Below, piece after piece: positions 42 through 19,583 of a stretch of DNA of 28,648 nucleotides. The stretch is from Elainellaceae cyanobacterium (GTDB lineage Bacteria; Cyanobacteriota; Cyanobacteriia; CAZCXK01). The notes under the pieces are model-generated. The model saw only the letters and a program-made list of their open reading frames with translations. It was not told the origin of the DNA and made no database searches. Each line of letters begins with the position of its first letter. Position 1 is the first letter of the stretch. The position numbers and the translations under genes were made by a program. The stretch is taken from the NCBI GenBank assembly GCA_051117555.1, contig JBNPEG010000142.1, positions 1 to 28,648 of the forward strand. Reading direction: 5' to 3'.

Positions 42-638
42 TTATTCTTTCACACGAAAGTTAGGCCAGGTTACGAAGCCCTTGACCTGGCAATTTAGTT
101 GATCCAACCATGCAGCCAGTTCATGATTACTGTTATGAAAAATAGTATAGGTTTGCGAGTCACGAACAAACACTAATTCACTATTTGAACCTTCAACACG
201 AGAATTAATGTTTTGGTGAAACCGTGCGTCTAAATCTGCTACCAGTTCCATCACGTCAGCGTTGGCAACAGAGATGCTCAGCAATGTGTCTTGCCAATCA
301 GAACCCAAGACTTGCCTTAAATCAGACAAATCGCTGAATTCCTGTCTAGCAAGTGTTCCTGGAGTTGGCGCAAACAGAGCCGCAACCCCATCAACTACCC
401 CATGTTGGTTTAAGGCAAAATATCTCCAATCTCCATAGGCATATTGGACTAACCCACCTTCACCGTCTGGTAAAAGCAGCCTTGAATGAAATCCATAATC
501 GGTGATGTAAACAGTTGTCGGGACAACTGGCGCAGCGGGGGGAATGATCACCGTAGGCGTGCGAATTAAAACTACAGCAGCAGTTGCCAAAGCTAGAGTG
601 ACAAATATTGATGTCGCAACTCTGCGTGAGGATTTCAC
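42..638 (-). CDS. Secreted/membrane-anchored DUF2459-like hypothetical protein
   Basis: N-terminal hydrophobic helix. Motifs VYITDYGFHSRLLLP, YAYGDWRYF and YTIFHNSN resemble the DUF2459 family. GTG start. Confidence 0.55.
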   Translation of the reverse strand: MKSSRRVATSIFVTLALATAAVVLIRTPTVIIPPAAPVVPTTVYITDYGFHSRLLLPDGEGGLVQYAYGDWRYFALNQHGVVDGVAALFAPTPGTLARQEFSDLSDLRQVLGSDWQDTLLSISVANADVMELVADLDARFHQNINSRVEGSNSELVFVRDSQTYTIFHNSNHELAAWLDQLNCQVKGFVTWPNFRVKE

Positions 639-8255: not shown

Positions 8256-8684
8256 ATGTTATTGAATAAAAACCGTTGTAAATTACCCTTGACTCAAGAA
8301 CTTTTGAAAGATCAGATTACTACTACCGAGACTGAGACTTCATTTTTAAGAATTGTAGTGGTGCTGTTGGCAATTGCAGCAATCATTAGTTCTGTCGTAT
8401 TCGGCATCTTTCAGTTTCAGCAGTCTGATCCGTATATTCAAGCGGTGTTGTCGTCTGTTGGTGATTCTGAACGAGGGCATGCAATCTTTGAACTTAATTG
8501 CTCTGGGTGTCATGGTATTTACGGTGATGGGCGGGTGGGGCCTAGTCTGCATCATATTTCTGACCACAAATCTAAAGTGGCGTTGATAAAGCAGGTCACC
8601 AGTGGTCAAACGCCGCCCATGCCACAGTTTCAACCCAGTCCTCAAGAAATGGCAGATCTGCTGGAATATTTAGAGAGGCTGTAA
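8256..8684 (+). CDS. cytM: Cytochrome cM
   Basis: N-terminal TM helix, CSGCH heme motif, GPSL and TPPMPQFQP. Divergent from petG, as is usual in cyanobacteria. The true start may be TTG 8289 or 8304. Confidence 0.88.
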   Translation: MLLNKNRCKLPLTQELLKDQITTTETETSFLRIVVVLLAIAAIISSVVFGIFQFQQSDPYIQAVLSSVGDSERGHAIFELNCSGCHGIYGDGRVGPSLHHISDHKSKVALIKQVTSGQTPPMPQFQPSPQEMADLLEYLERL

Positions 8685-8712: not shown

Positions 8713-10389
8713 TTATCGTGCAGGTGTTAGATCAGGAATAAATTCAAATGATGTTTTCACTTGAACGGTGCAGGGCTGCCAGTCACCGCTCGATACCAAT
8801 ACGTCTGCGGCAGTTCCGTCTAGCCAGAGTTTCAAGTCTGGATGCGATCGCCACGCCTGTTCAACCCTGTCGCCGAGGCGATTGACCAAACACGCAGACT
8901 CGCACCACTGACAATCATCTGCTTGAGCGATCGCCTGTAAGTGGAGCGGAAACACACCTAATTTTGCAGGTCGGCCCGTTGCGACATCCAACGACCACCC
9001 TAATTCGGGGGTTTCAACCTGTAATGTCACTAACAATCGCAAGGTTCCAGACCTCCAGCCAGAGCCGGGCTGCAAAACGGTTGCTCGCACCCCGCTAATC
9101 AACTGCATCATCTCAAAAGCGCTGCGACTAAAGCTCCACATGAGCTGGAGTACACATTCGTTTAATCTAAGCTCATGACGGACAAACTCATAGTCTGCAT
9201 AACTTAAGGACATTTCGATACCCGCTGAAAACTCGCAGACATCTTGAATCAGGGCGATGAGATAGGCATCATTTGACCCATTAGGTGAGTGATGCCGGAG
9301 GCGAGTGTAGCTAGACATACGAACTGGCTGACTCAAGATATGCGGATTGAGAACCGCAGCAGCATACTGTTCGAGCCAATTTGGATCAGACAGTCGAATC
9401 AGCGGTTGCAGTGCTGGCATTGAGTGTGCCTCTCCAGAGGCAACGAGATCGATCTCGGCAAGGGTGCTAAGGATCTCTGCCTCTAGCATTCGGTCGATTG
9501 CCATATCGTCAGCATCGGCAATAAATTCTACATCGAGTCGAAAGCACAGCGATCCAGATTGCCAGGATTCTCCAGGGATGAGTATGTCAACCTCAATTCC
9601 TTTCATTAGCTCGTTTGCTTCAGGAATCGTGGATCGGAGATAGTGCTCAATCCGCTGCGTAAGAAAGTTGGTCGCGATCGCCTCCCTGCAAAGCGTACAA
9701 TCATCAGATTGGACATGAGTGTCTCCGGGTAGAGGGGATGAAAACGATCGCCCGGTTGCCAAATCAAGGGCACAGCTTGCCATCGGCGTGCGGATATCCA
9801 ACACGGCAATCAGCCGAAGAATTCCGGTCTGCTGGGGATAGTCAGATCGGGCAATGCTGGCAACAATTCCTTCCATGAGCTGCATCATGCCAGAAGACGC
9901 TCTCGCCACACACCAAAGCAACCAAGGGGCCAACTGACGAATCGTGAAATAGTCATGCCAATGCGTCCAAGACAAGGCCGTCTGAACGGTTACGTCATTT
10001 GGTTGAGACGTGTCTACTTCTGCTCGCAGCACATCGAGGAGGTCTTGCGCTTCGTCTTCCACGTAAGGCAATAAATTCTCCGGGGTTTGAGGGACATTTT
10101 CAGGCCAACCCCCGTCGGGCGATCGCACCTGAGCAACACGTTGCAAAAGACGATGAAGCCCTAATCGTTGCGCTTGATTCATGAACGCTTGAGGGTCTGT
10201 CAACCGCAATCTGGAAGCGTCTGCATCTGCGTGCAAGGTCTGTATCGGTAAGCTCTCTATAGCCGATTCCGTTAGCTTAAGAACAGCATTTTCAAAATTT
10301 AGATTAAGGGTGCTCTGAGAAAGCGTATCAATATCGTTGATAGAGAAACTACGTATAGAGTGAGACGGTGGGAATGACATGAGAGACAA
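8713..10389 (-). CDS. Hypothetical protein: tandemly duplicated, with a MazG-like segment and KGK-like domains
   Basis: Long ORF with an internal repeat (aa ~61-292 vs ~331-553). KGK-like motifs such as GIEVDILIPGESWQSGSL...EFIAD. Start codon uncertain. Confidence 0.75.
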   Translation of the reverse strand: MSLMSFPPSHSIRSFSINDIDTLSQSTLNLNFENAVLKLTESAIESLPIQTLHADADASRLRLTDPQAFMNQAQRLGLHRLLQRVAQVRSPDGGWPENVPQTPENLLPYVEDEAQDLLDVLRAEVDTSQPNDVTVQTALSWTHWHDYFTIRQLAPWLLWCVARASSGMMQLMEGIVASIARSDYPQQTGILRLIAVLDIRTPMASCALDLATGRSFSSPLPGDTHVQSDDCTLCREAIATNFLTQRIEHYLRSTIPEANELMKGIEVDILIPGESWQSGSLCFRLDVEFIADADDMAIDRMLEAEILSTLAEIDLVASGEAHSMPALQPLIRLSDPNWLEQYAAAVLNPHILSQPVRMSSYTRLRHHSPNGSNDAYLIALIQDVCEFSAGIEMSLSYADYEFVRHELRLNECVLQLMWSFSRSAFEMMQLISGVRATVLQPGSGWRSGTLRLLVTLQVETPELGWSLDVATGRPAKLGVFPLHLQAIAQADDCQWCESACLVNRLGDRVEQAWRSHPDLKLWLDGTAADVLVSSGDWQPCTVQVKTSFEFIPDLTPAR

Positions 10390-10487: not shown

Positions 10488-11168
10488 TTACAGCCCTGGC
10501 TTGCGACGCATGTATTCGTCTAAATTTAGCTCAGATAGTTGCTGATATGCCGTCTCAATTACGCGCCTTCCCCTCAAAAATCCGGTGTTGGCCCCTGGAC
10601 AAATCGTCTGCAATGTACCTGGATTGAATGCATCCAGAAGATGCTGAACGCTTCGAATTTGGCGAGGCCAGTGAAAGGTTTTCGCAACTCTCAGCGGTCT
10701 TGGCTTTCCGTCATGATCAGGCAGCAGATGACGACCTGAAAACAAGATTCCACCGTGGCGATCGCAATATAGACACGATGATCCGGGGGAGTGACCGGGA
10801 GTCCAAATTGTCAGGCATTGCTCGTTAATCTGAAATCGATGTTGGAATGTTGTAACCTCCAAATTGGGGAGCAAATATGCTTCTTGCTCTTGAATTAAAA
10901 GACGACATCCCAGTGCTTGGTGAATCTCACGAGCTTTGCCAATTCCTCCGCGATGCGTCATAAATAACCAACTCACCCCGCCCTGAGCGGTCAGAAACTG
11001 CTGATTAGTTTCGTTCCAGGCAGGAGAATCTACTAAGATATTTCCGGTTTCTTCGACAATCAGATAGGCCGTTGCGCCCATCGTGTCGCGATTGGGGGGG
11101 AACGCAAAGATATCCTTATGAATCTCTCTGGGTAATTTGTTAGAAGTGTTACTCTGATGATTTGACAC
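10488..11168 (-). CDS. MBL-fold metallo-hydrolase-like protein (degenerate metal motif)
   Basis: AYLI...NILVDSP, FMTHRGGIG, TPGHSPGS, LFSGRHL and ICPGA. Confidence 0.85.
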   Translation of the reverse strand: MSNHQSNTSNKLPREIHKDIFAFPPNRDTMGATAYLIVEETGNILVDSPAWNETNQQFLTAQGGVSWLFMTHRGGIGKAREIHQALGCRLLIQEQEAYLLPNLEVTTFQHRFQINEQCLTIWTPGHSPGSSCLYCDRHGGILFSGRHLLPDHDGKPRPLRVAKTFHWPRQIRSVQHLLDAFNPGTLQTICPGANTGFLRGRRVIETAYQQLSELNLDEYMRRKPGL

Positions 11169-11338
11169 GGGTTAAAACTATAAACACGCTAAGCTTGCAG
11201 TATGTTTTTGTGGAACGCTTTAGAATCAAGCAATTTGGCAAGCTGAACGAAAGCGGTATCCTGGAAGTAAGGTGTCTATCAAGTCAGTCTTGATTTGATA
11301 GCGTAAACTCAGGAGCGTTGAAATTCTGGATTCACAGC

Positions 11339-12829
11339 ATGGAGATTTTTTGGCTGCTCCTTTTAGGAACATTTACATATCTTATCGTTCGGCGGAGCGT
11401 GGCTAACATTACCCGGACTCCCGTCTGGATTCTATGGCTTGTAATGATGATGCCAGCCTTCATCTGGACAACTTGGGTGATGTTAAACGGCGAAAATGAG
11501 CCAATACCGCCGCTGCTGCTGTTTGGCCCATTCGTTGTATGTCCAATCTTATACTGGTTCTTGATTCAGTGGGGGCGACCAGGTAAACCCGCGCCTGAAA
11601 ATTCTCAAATTCAGAAGCAAGCATCAGCGGATTTGCCCATCTCTGCCGTGGATAAGCAACCCGAGGTGCTTCGCCCGATTGATAAAGACGAGGAAGCAAC
11701 GCTGAAAACCTGCTTCCCGTGGTCTATTTTCTATCTAAAAAATATCGAATATCGTCCCCAAGCATTAATCTGTCGGGGGCACCTCCGGACGTCTCCAGAA
11801 ACTGCTTATCAGACGATTCGAGATAATGTAGAAGGCAAATTTGGCGATCGCTTTTTAGTGATATTTCAGGAAGGGGGAGATGGCAAACCCTTCTTTGCGC
11901 TGGTTTCGAATTCTCAAGCTAAGCAGGCCAACGCCAATCCTGCAAAATTGGTTCGCCCCGGTTTGGCATTGGGGCTTTGGACAGCGACTCTAATTACGAC
12001 AACCTTTGCAGGCGTTGTCGTTGCAGGCACATCAATCGATGATTTACAGATTAATTGGTCAACTCTCAATTCAGGATTGCCCTATGCCCTGGCATTAATG
12101 GCAATTTTGGGAATTCATGAACTGGCTCATTATCTGACCGCTCGTGCATATCGCATCAAGGTTACGTTTCCTTATTTTATTCCAGTGCCTCCGGCTCCCA
12201 TTTTCCCGTTTGGCACGTTGGGGGCGTTTATCCAGATGCGATCGCCCGTTCCCAATCGTAGAGCCTTATTCGACGTGGGCATTGCAGGCCCGCTTGCGGG
12301 GTTTATTGTGACCCTGCCTATCCTGATTTGGGGGCTGGCTCATTCTGCCCCGACGCCCTTAACGGATGAGTCGAGTATCTTAAATTTTGAATCGTTCAGG
12401 CCAGGGGCTTCCTTACTCTTGGCATTGCTCAGTAAGCTAGCGTTAGGAAATGAACTAACTGCGACTAGTGCGCTTAATCTTCACCCTGTGGCGATCGCCG
12501 GATGCTTAGGAGTAGTGGTGACAGCCCTTAACCTGATGCCCGTTGGGCAGCTCGATGGAGGGCACATTGTCCACGCTATGTTTGGTCAACGCAGTGGAGC
12601 AGCTATTGGACAAATTTCTCGATTCTTAGTCTTAGGCTTATCATTCGTACAGCGTGAATTCTTTTTATGGGCTATCCTCTTATTTTTTATACCGGTCGTT
12701 GATGAGCCAACGCTTAATGATGTCAGCGAACTTGATAACAAACGAGACATTTGGGGCTTAGTAGCGCTCAGCCTGCTAGTGGTCATTGTGCTCCCTGCCC
12801 CTGCAACTCTGATGCAAATTTTGTTCTAA
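11339..12829 (+). CDS. Site-2 protease (M50 family, EGY/AraSP-like)
   Basis: HELAH, FDVGIAGPLAG and NLMPVGQLDGGH, with many TM helices. Alternative start at TTG 11318. Confidence 0.93.
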   Translation: MEIFWLLLLGTFTYLIVRRSVANITRTPVWILWLVMMMPAFIWTTWVMLNGENEPIPPLLLFGPFVVCPILYWFLIQWGRPGKPAPENSQIQKQASADLPISAVDKQPEVLRPIDKDEEATLKTCFPWSIFYLKNIEYRPQALICRGHLRTSPETAYQTIRDNVEGKFGDRFLVIFQEGGDGKPFFALVSNSQAKQANANPAKLVRPGLALGLWTATLITTTFAGVVVAGTSIDDLQINWSTLNSGLPYALALMAILGIHELAHYLTARAYRIKVTFPYFIPVPPAPIFPFGTLGAFIQMRSPVPNRRALFDVGIAGPLAGFIVTLPILIWGLAHSAPTPLTDESSILNFESFRPGASLLLALLSKLALGNELTATSALNLHPVAIAGCLGVVVTALNLMPVGQLDGGHIVHAMFGQRSGAAIGQISRFLVLGLSFVQREFFLWAILLFFIPVVDEPTLNDVSELDNKRDIWGLVALSLLVVIVLPAPATLMQILF

Positions 12830-12872: not shown

Positions 12873-13367
12873 ATGACACACGATGTTAGGCAGTGGCTGA
12901 CAGAAATTAAAACTCTACAACAGAAGTTGAGTGAGGTTCAGAAGGAGCGCGACGAAGCGTTTGCAAGCGCGGCGAAGTGGCGAAGTCTATACGAGACTGA
13001 GGCGAGACAGCGTCGAGCCGATGCTCATCAGGCGCAGCAAATGATTCAGCACCTCAAAACTGAATTTCAGTCGTCTCAGCTTCCGCCAGTTAACGCGCCA
13101 ACCGACCCCGCTCTCACTGACTCGTCAATTCATCAGCAGGTTAAAACGCTTCAAGCCGATGAATTAGAAGCCAAGCTGATTGAGGCGTTAGTCGAGCGCG
13201 ATCGCCTCTCCCATGACCTCCAATCTGAACGAGATGCGCATGAGCGTACTCGGAAAAATCTAACCAGTGCCCTCGGCGATACCGTCGATTTGCTGACCAA
13301 AGAGCGAGCCGTTCGCGTACTCCAATCCGACACTGCTCAACCCATCTCGACTCAAGCCAATCTGTAA
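12873..13367 (+). CDS. Coiled-coil hypothetical protein
   Basis: Heptad-rich, Glu/Gln/Arg-rich ORF directly downstream of the protease. Confidence 0.75.
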   Translation: MTHDVRQWLTEIKTLQQKLSEVQKERDEAFASAAKWRSLYETEARQRRADAHQAQQMIQHLKTEFQSSQLPPVNAPTDPALTDSSIHQQVKTLQADELEAKLIEALVERDRLSHDLQSERDAHERTRKNLTSALGDTVDLLTKERAVRVLQSDTAQPISTQANL

Positions 13368-15659: not shown

Positions 15660-15784
15660 TATTGCGTTCAAGGTGCTGCTAGCCCTAGCATTCACCTCAA
15701 TTTTCTTTACGTTTCTTTGTAATTTCGAGTGTGCATCACTTGAGATCAGCGTTATTCTGAGTGAAGGAATTGAGGGCACTAGGA

Positions 15785-16555
15785 ATGAATCAATTGCTTA
15801 GGAGCATGATTCTGGGCGCGATCGCTCTCTCACTGATAAGCTGCGGGAATTCGGCGACTGCTCCTCGCAACGAGCAGTCGGAGTCGCTTATGTCTAATAC
15901 CCAAAACGACATCGTGGCTGCTCCATCTGCGTCCGATTCTTCCTCGTCTGACCTTTTGTCCGTGCCAGATTCAGATAATCTGCAAGCGGTTGCAGTGCCT
16001 CCGCTCATTCCACCAACGTCCATATCGGAGCGACTCTCGCAAATTGACTCGGGAAGAAACGATCCGTTTGCTCCTATCAGTGCCGGAGCGCCTATCTTAG
16101 TGCAAACTTCGCCGAGATATCAGTCAGGTGCGTTGCCCACCGTCCCTGTTGCATCCACTCCATCTCTCCCTGAGCCTGTCGCAACGGTTCCAGTTGCCGC
16201 TTACCCTCCCACGTCATTAACTCCAAATCCATCGGGTCAAGCGCCAGTGCCTGCTCCCGTCCCTGCTCCCTCCAACGCTGTGCCTGCTCCTGTGCCCACG
16301 CCTCCGCTGGCTCGTCTGATTGAAATTAGCGGCGTCGTTCAAGTAGGTGGACAAACCAGTGTGATCGTCATGATGCCGACTGAGCGGAGTAGTCGATATG
16401 TCCGTATCGGAGAACGGATAGGCAATGGGCAAATTCTTGTCAAGCGAGTCGATATGGACGCTGCGTATGAGCCCGTTGTCATATTGGAGCAAGACGGCGT
16501 AGAAATCGTGCGTACGATTGGCAGTGCTGGAGGGGCTGAAATTGGTTCCTTATAG
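15785..16555 (+). CDS. Lipoprotein with a Pro-rich linker and a PilP/GspC-HR-like C-terminal beta domain
   Basis: Lipobox LISC, GRNDPF motif, PVPAP-rich linker and ISGVVQVGGQTSVIV...YVRIGERIGNGQILVKRV. Confidence 0.7.
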   Translation: MNQLLRSMILGAIALSLISCGNSATAPRNEQSESLMSNTQNDIVAAPSASDSSSSDLLSVPDSDNLQAVAVPPLIPPTSISERLSQIDSGRNDPFAPISAGAPILVQTSPRYQSGALPTVPVASTPSLPEPVATVPVAAYPPTSLTPNPSGQAPVPAPVPAPSNAVPAPVPTPPLARLIEISGVVQVGGQTSVIVMMPTERSSRYVRIGERIGNGQILVKRVDMDAAYEPVVILEQDGVEIVRTIGSAGGAEIGSL

Positions 16556-16609: not shown

Positions 16610-17146
16610 ATGACCAAGCCACTTCCAGCACGACATCAGCACGCCGACGCTCCTTCGTCTAAGGCGGTTCGGAGTCAAGGAAATTTGAATTACCGTGATA
16701 CCTACATTTGTCCGGTCTGTCGCCACGGTCAGATTTCTGCTCTAACGCTAATGGATGCGTTTGCCTGCAACTTTTGCCGACACATTTTTACCGCAAATCT
16801 GAATAATCAGTCAGTGCAAGTCGTAGACAGTTCGCAGGCAATGTCGTGGCGTTGGACAGGGCGCACCTGGCAAGCGGCGTATCAGAATGATTCGGACGTG
16901 ACAGTAGCGATCTGGTTAGTTGGCATTGCGCTGGTCGTGTTACCTTCGGCGGTGGTGTGCATATTTGCGTATATGTTTCCGCCGATGCCAGGTAGTCAGT
17001 GGGCGTGGTTCCCGTTACTTTGGTGCGGAATCACCATCATCGTTCATTTAGGAATGGTGTCATGGCTGATGGCTGAACACTATCAAATTCCGGTCTATAT
17101 ATCGAGTAAGATTAGGCTTCGTCGCTTTCTAAGCGATCGCTCATAG
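16610..17146 (+). CDS. Zinc-ribbon membrane protein (hypothetical)
   Basis: CPVC...CNFC followed by two TM helices. Confidence 0.8.
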   Translation: MTKPLPARHQHADAPSSKAVRSQGNLNYRDTYICPVCRHGQISALTLMDAFACNFCRHIFTANLNNQSVQVVDSSQAMSWRWTGRTWQAAYQNDSDVTVAIWLVGIALVVLPSAVVCIFAYMFPPMPGSQWAWFPLLWCGITIIVHLGMVSWLMAEHYQIPVYISSKIRLRRFLSDRS

Positions 17147-17186: not shown

Positions 17187-19583
17187 TTACCGAAACTGTT
17201 GATGTTGATCTGACCAGCGTCGCAAATGATAGGTCTGGGATGCGTCTTGAGCAATCAACGCTGAGTGGCGATCGCCTAAGATGGCCACTCCGAGCGATCG
17301 CCCAGAATACAAAACATCTCCTTGGTGAGATATCACCAACGTCTGGAGGGGCGAATGAGACGCATCTAGTTGAGACGGGCGTAGCGTAATCACCGCTTCG
17401 GCGTGGGCATCGCCTGTTAAATCAATCAGTTGAGTCGGAGATGAGCCCAGCCTGTTCAATAGATCGTCAGGTTTCATGGATGAGACGGATTGAGATGTGC
17501 TTGAGCCGTTGTGCAACTCCTCAGCGGACAGAATTTGCTCGATACGGGGCAGGATCAACGACGCCCATTCAGGATGTTGATCGCTAATGTCTCTCAGGGT
17601 TGATTGCCCGACGAGGGGAATTACTCGAATCGTGTCGGATGTAAACGCGAACAGGCTGCCCGACTCCGCTACGGTCAAAAAATCTCCTGTTAGCGCTGAG
17701 CCGACTGCAAGGAGTTCGACCCGTCCTGACTGGAGGCGAGCAGCCTGGAGGCGAACAGATAGCGTGTGCGATCGCCCATCGTCTGCCCAAAACATGAGCC
17801 GCAATCGAGTATCGGGAGTGATCCCAAAACGATCGATGAGCTGCCGAGCGGAGAGCTGGTTTAGATCGTCATTTGCAAAGGGCGATCGCGCTCCGTCTTG
17901 ACCCGCAAAGCGGTGCTCAACCTGGATGCGATACCAGGCTTGCTGATCTCCAAGGTCAGGGATTTGAGTCGAGTGTAAGCTCAGCCAGTCTGCGTCATTC
18001 ACTGCTGAAACAACGCTCGCGGTTCCGACTATTTGGTGGCTCACGGATTCCTCTAACGACGATGAGGACGAGGATGACGAGCGGGAGGAAACCGGAGATG
18101 GATTGAGCTGACTCAACACCGATTGAACTCGGTCACTCGCCTGGTCGCGTTGGGGATACTGACTCAACCAGGCGATCGCGGCTGCCTGATCCTGCTGGGT
18201 TGCCAGAATCAACGCTCCCCATGCCTGTACATCAAGCTGGTCTGGATTGACTCGAAGCGCAGTTTCAATTCGCTCCCACACCTGTCCTGACTGATCCGCC
18301 AATATAGGGGTTACATCTTGATCGGTTTCGAGCGCCGTTTTCAAAATCTCGAATGCAGAGTCCCAGCGTCCGTCAATCAGATTAGCGATTAGCTGCTGTC
18401 CTGGACTCGCCCAGGTACGCTCTGCTTGCGCTTGAGTCACGCGAGCATGAAGGGCGATCGCATCCAATTGGGCTTGCGCCTCTAGCGACCAATCTTGAAT
18501 CTGCTGGCGGACAGCTTGAAGCTGACGCAGCGCAGGCGACCATAGGCCGCTGCGAGCTAGCAACAGTCCCCGTTCATAATCGGGATGAGGCAGGGCAGGC
18601 TGCGTCAAGCTAATTTCTCGCAATCGCACAGGACGCCCGAGCCCTCGAGGAGCCAGTTGATAAATGTCAAACTGGGGTTCTAGCCCAAGGGTTTGATCGA
18701 CAACTAGCGACGGAGTTTGAGCCGTGATGGGTTTCCAGGCGGGCAGCGTATTGGCTGGACTGGTCCACTGCAACATCAGCGACAGGCGATGGCGTTCAGA
18801 ATCGTAATAGACAACCTGACCATATAACGCGCGATGTCTGCCTTTCATCCACTCTCCAACCAGATGAAGCCAGATTCCCTCTGCGGGTGAAGCATCTCCT
18901 GGAATGAACTGAACGCGATCTAGGGGAAGTGTTCGAGCCGACCCTGGACTTGCTATTCCAAGTGGAATAAAAGGCGCGACGACAAATGATTCATCCGGCC
19001 CAGACACTGCGACCCGCTCAATCAAAACCCAGAGCGTCTCGTCAGCAGACCCTGAGGAAAATTGGTCGGCTAAGGGAGTATTTTCAATCGGGCGATAGAC
19101 TCGGAGTTCGGCAATGTGCCCACATTCCAGCGAAAACGGCACACTGTCTGAGCTAGATGCAGTCTCCAGGCAATGAGGACGACGGGATAGGATAGGCAAC
19201 AACACATCGGAGTCATCGCTGAGACCGCGTGTGTTAGAGCTAGACGCTAGCGGCAGCAGAGTTCCGGAACGTAATCCGTCTTGAACTAACGCGGCTTGAA
19301 TCTTGGATAACGTCTGGGGCGAATGTTTAAACGGGTTGCGATTTTGAAGCGGCAAGACTCGATTGAGCCACGTGACCGACTCTGGATTGAGTATAAGCTG
19401 GACAGCGAGCCATCCTCCGCTGCCGATGAGGCCAATCGTGCTGATGAGCAGCCCGCTCGCCATCAGAAAGACTTTGATTGAAACACGGTGTCGAGGACCT
19501 GCCGATCTCGCCTTTTGTGAATGCGATTGAGATCGAGAATTGCGGGGCGATCGCCCCGATGAGTTGTGAAGATGATGGCTCAT
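17187..19583 (-). CDS. Large membrane-anchored hypothetical protein with a central helical/TPR-like region
   Basis: 798-aa ORF with a basic N-terminus, one TM helix (aa ~38-63), a helical segment YERGLLLARSGLWSPAL and a DLTGD loop near the C-terminus. Confidence 0.75.
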   Translation of the reverse strand: MSHHLHNSSGRSPRNSRSQSHSQKARSAGPRHRVSIKVFLMASGLLISTIGLIGSGGWLAVQLILNPESVTWLNRVLPLQNRNPFKHSPQTLSKIQAALVQDGLRSGTLLPLASSSNTRGLSDDSDVLLPILSRRPHCLETASSSDSVPFSLECGHIAELRVYRPIENTPLADQFSSGSADETLWVLIERVAVSGPDESFVVAPFIPLGIASPGSARTLPLDRVQFIPGDASPAEGIWLHLVGEWMKGRHRALYGQVVYYDSERHRLSLMLQWTSPANTLPAWKPITAQTPSLVVDQTLGLEPQFDIYQLAPRGLGRPVRLREISLTQPALPHPDYERGLLLARSGLWSPALRQLQAVRQQIQDWSLEAQAQLDAIALHARVTQAQAERTWASPGQQLIANLIDGRWDSAFEILKTALETDQDVTPILADQSGQVWERIETALRVNPDQLDVQAWGALILATQQDQAAAIAWLSQYPQRDQASDRVQSVLSQLNPSPVSSRSSSSSSSSLEESVSHQIVGTASVVSAVNDADWLSLHSTQIPDLGDQQAWYRIQVEHRFAGQDGARSPFANDDLNQLSARQLIDRFGITPDTRLRLMFWADDGRSHTLSVRLQAARLQSGRVELLAVGSALTGDFLTVAESGSLFAFTSDTIRVIPLVGQSTLRDISDQHPEWASLILPRIEQILSAEELHNGSSTSQSVSSMKPDDLLNRLGSSPTQLIDLTGDAHAEAVITLRPSQLDASHSPLQTLVISHQGDVLYSGRSLGVAILGDRHSALIAQDASQTYHLRRWSDQHQQFR

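Follow-up and report, generated by a model that had tools for sequence, protein, structure and literature searches.

We analysed a stretch of 28,648 nucleotides (nt) from an Elainellaceae cyanobacterium (assembly GCA_051117555.1, contig JBNPEG010000142.1, positions 1 to 28,648 of the forward strand), hereafter the window. Its reverse strand carries, at 8713..10380, a gene for a cytoplasmic protein of about 555 amino acids (aa) that belongs to an uncharacterised cyanobacterial family. This protein keeps a hairpin of the nucleoside triphosphate (NTP) pyrophosphohydrolase MazG, including half of its metal site, joined to repeated units that resemble the KGK domain, and its family follows the gas-vesicle genes across genomes. 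Our preferred reading, which we put at roughly one chance in two, is that the protein would be a pseudoenzyme, i.e. no pyrophosphohydrolase, in which the constrained MazG remnant offers a surface for docking or for binding a metal or ligand, carried by a pseudo-dimeric scaffold of repeats; this scaffold would act as an adaptor or regulator, jointly with the gas-vesicle protein GvpW, when gas vesicles are formed or in the control of this process.

The hairpin ties the protein to MazG. Hairpin 1 (aa 73-127; 10009..10173, minus strand) comprises MazG helix 1, the RSPxGG(C/W)P loop and helix 2, as delimited by hhalign, a profile search of the PDB, BLASTP and an AlphaFold2 (AF2) model. An earlier note on this DNA, made from the letters alone, had seen a MazG-like N-terminal module at aa 78-121 (10027-10158, minus strand). 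In the translated open reading frame (ORF) these residues read as it quoted them, they lie inside hairpin 1, and their similarity to the N-terminus of MazG is borne out. BLASTP with the two-domain MazG of the same genome (contig C107) gave 22/46 identities, i.e. 48% over 46 aa, at E 2e-11. With a profile of 10 family sequences, residues 4-52 of Escherichia coli MazG (3CRC) were matched at E 2.1e-8 and residues 80-130 of Mycobacterium tuberculosis MazG (7YH5) at E 0.072. The alignment by hhalign of 154 family segments with 19 cyanobacterial MazG first domains reached a probability of 99.3 (E 1e-20) over 55 columns, corresponding to aa 73-127. The family profile, run across the whole 6-Mb genome of the carrier, matched the family gene, which is single-copy, and MazG (E 2.4e-15), and nothing else. 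A hidden Markov model (HMM) of the MazG domain (127 positions, built from 19 cyanobacterial MazG domains) matched 142/155 family representatives at i-E<1e-3; here and below, the 155 representatives are the retrieved homologues minus the 489-aa prediction deposited for the window and one partial sequence.

The protein differs from MazG in scoring under the thresholds of the general MazG models. The Pfam model PF03819 gave no match at E<=10, and the NCBIfam models gave E-values of 0.005-0.04, with 16.5 bits for NF007113 (cut-off 208) and 13.7 bits for TIGR00444 (cut-off 148.3). The lack of a Pfam match is what can be said for a similarity due to chance, or for an ORF that is no real gene. We hold this explanation to be practically negligible: four independent comparisons, as we sum them, lie in the range of E 2e-11 to 1e-20, and an exhaustive profile search at E<=1e-30 retrieved 218 representative clusters of homologues, nearly all full length (430-1280 aa), which display a conservation pattern at the protein level.

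The structure models were also compared with known folds. The AF2 model of the full-length protein has a predicted local distance difference test score (pLDDT) of 71.3 and that of aa 66-296, built with 24 sequences, a pLDDT of 83.1; their secondary structures agree, with helices at aa 72-89 and 103-126. Foldseek, run against the PDB on the full model and on that of the first half, listed no entry at E<=0.001 and no structure of MazG, the two-helix element being too small for significance. VIA-align returned only generic helical hairpins for model residues 1-72 (best Z 6.1 and 5.1) and barely covered the alpha/beta part. Of the comparisons with MazG that the earlier note had proposed, that of profiles is positive by hhalign and without a match by the Pfam model, and that of folds speaks neither for nor against.

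The elements shared with MazG (PF03819; E. coli 3CRA/3CRC, M. tuberculosis 7YH5 and the carrier's own protein) are helix 1, the RSPxGG(C/W)P...QTP loop, which has an identical length, and helix 2 with its EExxE/D motif. Bacterial MazG also resembles the family protein in being a tandem duplication with the loop motif in the first copy only. The loop differs in that Cys-Pro-Trp has become Trp-Pro-x; the change from GCPWD to GWPEN had been correctly described. After helix 2 the confidence of the hhalign alignment between the family segments and the MazG domain falls to zero. Among the 145 members matched by the MazG-domain HMM the alignment ends at position 50-59 in 129, 60-69 in 13, 40-49 in two and at position 71 in one, so that it never passes position 71 of 127 and the truncation is a property of the whole family. 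Neither hhalign nor the HMM, in any of these 145 members, detected anything equivalent to the E-x-x-D helix or to the MazG helices after it, and hhalign gave a probability below 1 for aa 145-180 and aa 406-435 against the MazG domain. Where MazG continues with the rest of its all-alpha bundle, the family hairpin is followed by alpha/beta KGK-like units. The earlier note had thus rightly stated that the match ends after the first acidic helix and that the second acidic motif is absent. Its phrase "catalytically incomplete MazG fragment" also suits what is found: of the MazG domain, helix 1, the loop and helix 2 survive, along with two of its four Mg2+ ligands, and the rest is not detectable.

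The remnant is among the most constrained parts of the protein. Over the 155 representatives the mean majority-residue fraction is 0.585 for aa 78-121 and 0.362 for the whole protein; this segment ranks second of 515 windows of 44 aa, the first being 77-120. The conservation across homologues on which the proposal of a MazG-like module depended is thus present. In helix 1 and the loop the majority residues are L at position 81 (151/155), R at 89 (122/155), S at 90 (123/155), G at 94 (118/155), W at 95 (108/155, with C in 7), T at 102 (130/155) and P at 103 (125/155). They are followed by Y at 109 (148/155) and by the acidic positions 112 (E or D in 147/155), 113 (E in 151/155) and 116 (E or D in 138/155). 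The last three form the motif D112-E113-A-Q-D116 of helix 2 (10042..10056, minus strand), which corresponds to EExxE/D in MazG. The Mg2+ ion of the M. tuberculosis enzyme is described as bound by two pairs of residues on successive helices, E119/E122 and E138/D141 (PMC10014863). In the 7YH5 profile alignment E119 and E122 fall on E113 and D116, which means that half of the metal site is kept.

These same residues raise the question of an active enzyme, i.e. an NTP or nucleotide-derivative pyrophosphohydrolase whose missing half-site would come from diverged sequence such as the LxPxLLW helices that follow hairpin 1, from the second half of the protein or from a partner subunit. The loop and the Mg ligands of helix 2 are conserved as strongly as in real MazG. 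Immediately ahead of the LLW helix, acids are found in roughly half of the members for half 1 and in most of them for half 2 (E or D at position 411 in 114/155), and some members bear the automatic JGI name "NTP pyrophosphatase (non-canonical NTP hydrolase)". In addition, the central four-helix bundle that holds the active site of the all-alpha NTP pyrophosphohydrolase superfamily is described as one that can form from two chains giving two helices each (PMC2954211), which also makes it plausible that the two hairpins of a single chain pair as a pseudo-dimer. An active enzyme nevertheless seems improbable to us. No profile similarity extends past helix 2 in the 145 matching members; the candidate position for the fourth ligand is Pro in 110/155 members; the window protein itself has R151-Q152 where other members carry acids; and no counterpart was found of the basic C-terminal helix that binds phosphate.

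The family also keeps a particular genomic company. Two genome samples were used, one of the phylum (201 genomes, six with the family) and one of the class (401 genomes, 93 with the family, which represent 49/169 genera). In the class sample, with a threshold of E<=1e-14 for the GvpA family, GvpA-family genes are present in 87/93 family genomes versus 113/308 others (odds ratio 25, Fisher p 1.6e-24, kinship ignored). In the phylum sample all six family genomes are among the 27 with gas-vesicle genes, and GvpA-family genes were present in 10/10 further carrier genomes reached through related loci. The association can be followed inside taxonomic families: in f38 the same 15/39 genomes carry the family gene and gas-vesicle genes, and in f21 gas-vesicle genes are present in 17/17 family genomes versus 13/22 others.

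A gene of the GvpF/L family (PF06386) recurs beside the family gene. A partner profile built from the GvpF/L proteins encoded at this place recognised one gene per positive genome, hereafter the GvpW-like gene. In the phylum sample it is present in 26/201 genomes and GvpA-family genes in 27/201, and the two sets coincide except for one incomplete genome. In 11 inspected genomes without the family it lies inside the gvp cluster, beside another GvpF/L gene, and these compact clusters differ from the loci described here in lacking the family gene. According to PMC7204071 gvpW is the last gene of the Anabaena gvp cluster. The partner gene would fit gvpW; the function of GvpW itself is given as unknown in PMC8700078. 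Within the class sample the GvpW-like gene was found in 90/93 family genomes. For the 89 of these genomes with a listed position, the family gene stands directly upstream of this single GvpW-like gene on the same strand in 33, with a gap of 3-309 nt in 31 of them, and in five others the two are 2.1-2.5 kb apart on opposite strands.

The same arrangement was seen in loci collected around related genes, of which 23 out of 28 were analysed; the remaining five (L048, L052, L057, L058 and L059) were dropped by a filter on motif and length that left no ORF >=300 aa. A GvpL_GvpF gene follows the family gene directly on the same strand in 11/20 loci with downstream DNA. One of the 23, L050, has a GvpA/J-family gene (8265-8627, minus strand; Gas_vesicle E 1.9e-15) in convergent orientation right after the GvpW-like gene, and it is the only analysed locus with a structural-type gvp gene adjacent.

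Several observations weigh against a pseudoenzyme scaffold that acts with GvpW. The GvpW-like gene is on a different contig from the family gene in 43/89 genomes and more than 100 kb away in eight. For five family genomes (G253, G311, G418, G514 and G538) even a threshold of E 1e-3 gave no match to the GvpA family, and a sixth, G556, does not reach the 1e-14 threshold, no recheck at 1e-3 having been made for this genome. Conversely, 113 gas-vesicle genomes are without the family, which is therefore not a general requirement for gas vesicles. The co-occurrence statistics ignore shared ancestry. In the window itself no gvp gene stands beside the family gene, whose neighbours encode a metallo-beta-lactamase-fold protein, an M50 peptidase and a cytochrome c. 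As regards mechanism, some residual function towards metal or nucleotides would likewise be compatible with Mg-ligand residues that are near-invariant; the term non-catalytic has a single basis, namely that no homology to the second half of the site is detectable; and the fold searches neither support nor contradict a MazG-like bundle. The mechanism as a whole is drawn entirely from sequence, gene order and co-occurrence.

Some of these points would equally suit a hairpin that is purely a structural or dimerisation element, in a protein with a role unrelated to gas vesicles; the co-occurrence would then reflect lineage history and the GvpW-like neighbour would have been repurposed. The five or six family genomes without GvpA genes speak for this, as do the lack of linkage between the family gene and the GvpW-like gene in over half of the genomes and the lack of a known function for GvpW in the source cited above. 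We consider it somewhat unlikely. Lineage history does not readily give features that track each other inside taxonomic families, as in f38 and f21, and a hairpin with a structural role only is not expected to keep its metal-ligand acids in 89-97% of the members. Judged from its sequence, the hairpin could possibly serve in dimerisation or in nucleotide or metal sensing.

A more specific version of a gas-vesicle role takes in a second neighbour. Of the 20 loci with an upstream ORF, six have a gene for a Ser/Thr kinase immediately before the family gene; these loci (L037, L039, L040, L041, L043 and L044) are of the Oscillatoria and Microcoleaceae type, and the gene order in them is kinase, MazG-remnant protein, GvpW-like protein. 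The family protein would then be a hitherto unrecognised accessory or regulatory gas-vesicle protein of filamentous non-heterocystous cyanobacteria, a MazG-derived pseudoenzyme in which the conserved half active site would bind Mg2+ or a ligand of nucleotide type; acting with GvpW, and with the kinase in some lineages, it would couple the nucleotide or energy state of the cell to gas-vesicle assembly and buoyancy. We regard this version as unlikely and offer it as speculation from sequence and context. The kinases are 608-676 aa long (e.g. L037:3920-5866), and in L037 and L039 the end of the kinase gene touches the start of the family gene. No Pfam domain was found in the C-terminal 350 aa of the kinase.

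The earlier note had favoured another function, in which the fragment would bind or mimic the real MazG, or sense nucleotides, and so regulate nucleotide or stress signalling. Residues of helices 1 and 2 are reported to contribute to the dimer interface of M. tuberculosis MazG (PMC10014863), so that a mimic could in principle dock onto MazG, and the segment is 48% identical to the carrier's own MazG. Nothing in the genomic context supports it. The carrier's mazG is on another contig (C107), and none of the 77 ORFs neighbouring the family gene in the 23 loci has a MazG domain. The distributions differ as well: mazG is universal (41/41 sampled cyanobacterial genomes), the family is patchy (6/201) and follows the gas-vesicle genes. 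Gene order and co-occurrence indicate the gas-vesicle gene set instead, with a GvpW-like partner, and both parts of the proposal, the binding of MazG and the signalling role, now appear very unlikely.

The scaffold proposed in our preferred reading is suggested by the internal organisation of the protein. Half 1 (aa 79-293) and half 2 (aa 349-554) were aligned by hhalign with a probability of 100 (E 2.8e-49) over 202 columns. By sequence comparison the protein is an internal tandem duplication, each half of which consists of a MazG-type hairpin followed by two KGK-like units. Hairpin 2 (aa 349-395; 9205..9345, minus strand) lies inside the half-half alignment and is a degenerate second MazG-type hairpin, with neither the loop motif nor the acidic residues; its conservation is 0.235 versus 0.585 for hairpin 1. 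The helix-helix-beta-hairpin unit is itself repeated within each half, and the sub-repeat comparison of units A2 and B1 gave a probability of 96.3 (hhalign).

Four such units were delimited, all on the minus strand. Unit A1 (aa 147-200; 9790..9951), defined by the AF2 model, column statistics and hhalign, has two helices (LxPxLLW..ARSSY.VMQLLEG) and a beta-hairpin with the invariant R192. Unit A2 (aa 240-292; 9514..9672) contains a PGxxWQSG hairpin and the best Pfam KGK match. Unit B1 (aa 405-470; 8980..9177) is the counterpart of A1, with W418, G433 and G448 near-invariant and R451 and D468 conserved, and unit B2 (aa 500-555; 8725..8892) is the counterpart of A2. The conserved LxPxLLW helix was also considered as a diverged MazG E-x-x-D helix. 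This candidate was rejected, the hhalign probability being below 1 and the best, insignificant alignment falling on MazG helix 2 instead.

The assignment to KGK is based on the Pfam model PF08872, which matches the protein at E 2e-11 with 44.8 bits (cut-off 25.6) in three stretches, the best of which aligns aa 257-313 with positions 59-115 of 119. The four hairpins, with the motif G..V..L.PG..WQ.G.L.L, were also compared by hhalign with a single-domain KGK protein of 117 aa; against its WQKGK hairpin the probabilities were 86 (A2), 79, 49 and 25. That a MazG segment is joined to KGK-like domains, as first proposed from the letters, is thus confirmed by a Pfam score above cut-off and by this hhalign comparison.

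KGK is described as an enigmatic domain, possibly involved in protein-protein interaction (PMC5827413), and is also called enigmatic in PMC10104851. According to PMC5827413 the KGK proteins are small cyanobacterial proteins of about 120 aa encoded beside dynamin-like GTPases of the SynDLP type. The family protein is like them in carrying the hairpin motif G..V..L.PG..WQ.G.L.L...EF, four times, and differs from them in several respects: its match covers just the C-terminal half of the model; other residues (SGS, TGI, SGT and PCT) stand in place of K-G-K; and four partial units stand in a 555-aa chain with MazG hairpins. A further difference is that no dynamin-like gene is nearby, none being present among the genes of the window or the 77 neighbouring ORFs of the 23 loci. 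The 117-aa KGK gene used for comparison (L054:5212-5562, plus strand; Pfam E 1e-25) comes from a metagenome-assembled genome of Hormoscilla, where the family gene follows it directly.

Two Arg/Asp pairs recur in the units. R192 and D209, on neighbouring strands in the region of unit A1 (about 9763-9816; D209 follows A1), are each present in 155/155 members. Their counterparts in unit B1 (about 8986-9039) are R451 in 129/155 and D468 in 151/155. From their repetition in the sequence these pairs could be a repeated salt bridge or a functional site. Besides KGK, no Pfam domain was found in 12 long family members (667-1282 aa).

The protein thus offers a clean case of an enzyme remnant under strong selection, half of the MazG active site being kept and the rest of the fold lost, which bears on the origin of pseudoenzymes. 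The enigmatic KGK-type repeat gains a second genomic setting besides the dynamin-like GTPases, and an uncharacterised family becomes tied to the gas-vesicle gene set and to GvpW, of which it would be the first functional partner if the more specific version, with coupling to the nucleotide or energy state, is true. Buoyancy control is of importance to cyanobacteria that form blooms or mats and in engineered gas vesicles.

The named carriers of the family are filamentous (Elainellaceae, Leptolyngbyaceae, Oscillatoria, Hormoscilla, Nodosilinea and Halomicronema); the strains Nodosilinea nodulosa PCC 7104 and Oscillatoria sp. PCC 10802 are among those with a homologue. Its members are called "hypothetical protein" at NCBI and form a cyanobacterial cluster of 322 without a name in the ESM Atlas. 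The JGI name given above to some of them means that automatic annotation has noticed the MazG resemblance in places, and to this extent the resemblance was already known. New here are the precise limits of the remnant and its selective constraint, the tandem duplication inside the protein and the quantitative tie to gas-vesicle genomes. Searches of the literature for MazG with KGK, MazG with gas vesicle, and gvpW or gvpV with Leptolyngbya gave no description of the family, supplementary files being outside these searches, and we did not find it listed as a gvp gene in the gas-vesicle literature. In some genomes the family gene takes the form of two adjacent ORFs, split between the halves (G047:C1:3996521-3997974, and also G316, G340 and G387); in the last three a TAA lies within the second part. 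Genuine splitting, decay or errors of assembly could each account for this.

The limits of the gene were set as follows. The longest ORF (8713..10389, minus strand) begins with a TTG at 10389 and encodes 558 aa, the length given in the earlier note. The protein prediction deposited for the window has 489 aa and starts at M70. A homologue with 82% identity begins with MSFPP, and distant relatives have conserved the N-terminal motif VLKLTES (aa 36-42; 10264..10284, minus strand), located ahead of M70: two family alignments have the consensus TVLxL there, and AF2 models a strand at aa 36-39 with a pLDDT of about 80. For these two reasons, i.e. the start of the homologue and the conserved motif, we place the start at the ATG at 10380, which gives 555 aa, with the stop codon at 8713-8715. 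The description "unannotated 558-aa protein" consequently stands for the TTG start as regards length, and not for the annotation, given that a database prediction exists. Three soil-metagenome DNA runs contain part of the gene; no RNA run is listed among the sequencing runs that match it.

Upstream of the family gene, on the same strand and at a distance of 98 nt, lies a gene for a metallo-beta-lactamase-fold protein (10488..11168, minus strand; Pfam). The two may be co-transcribed; a scan for promoters and terminators around the gene, the interval between the two included, yielded no signal informative on operon structure beyond what shuffled sequence gives. Beyond it a gene for an M50 peptidase of the site-2 protease type (11318-12829, plus strand) is divergent, and the cytochrome c gene is downstream of the family gene. 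The Elainellales relatives L032, L033 and L036 retain this trio of family gene, metallo-beta-lactamase-fold gene and M50 gene and have no GvpW-like gene beside it. Elsewhere in the carrier genome a gvp cluster (C26:6136-11208) contains three Gas_vesicle (GvpA/J-type) matches and a strong GvpF/L gene at the contig end. The GvpW-like gene stands alone at C185:14942-15616, between genes for a ribosome hibernation factor and a DUF481 protein; its product is 35-46% identical, over the full length, to the partners adjoining family genes in other genomes.

Other ORFs of the window had no Pfam match at the thresholds used: 17187-19583 (minus strand), 12873-13367 (plus), 15761-16555 (plus), 16610-17146 (plus) and 42-638 (minus). 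They include an ORF of 798 aa and a Gln/Glu-rich ORF of 164 aa directly after the M50 peptidase gene. At 823-2004, on the minus strand, the window also encodes a transaldolase in which Pfam recognises a TAL_FSA domain and a C-terminal EF-hand pair (aa 335-381).

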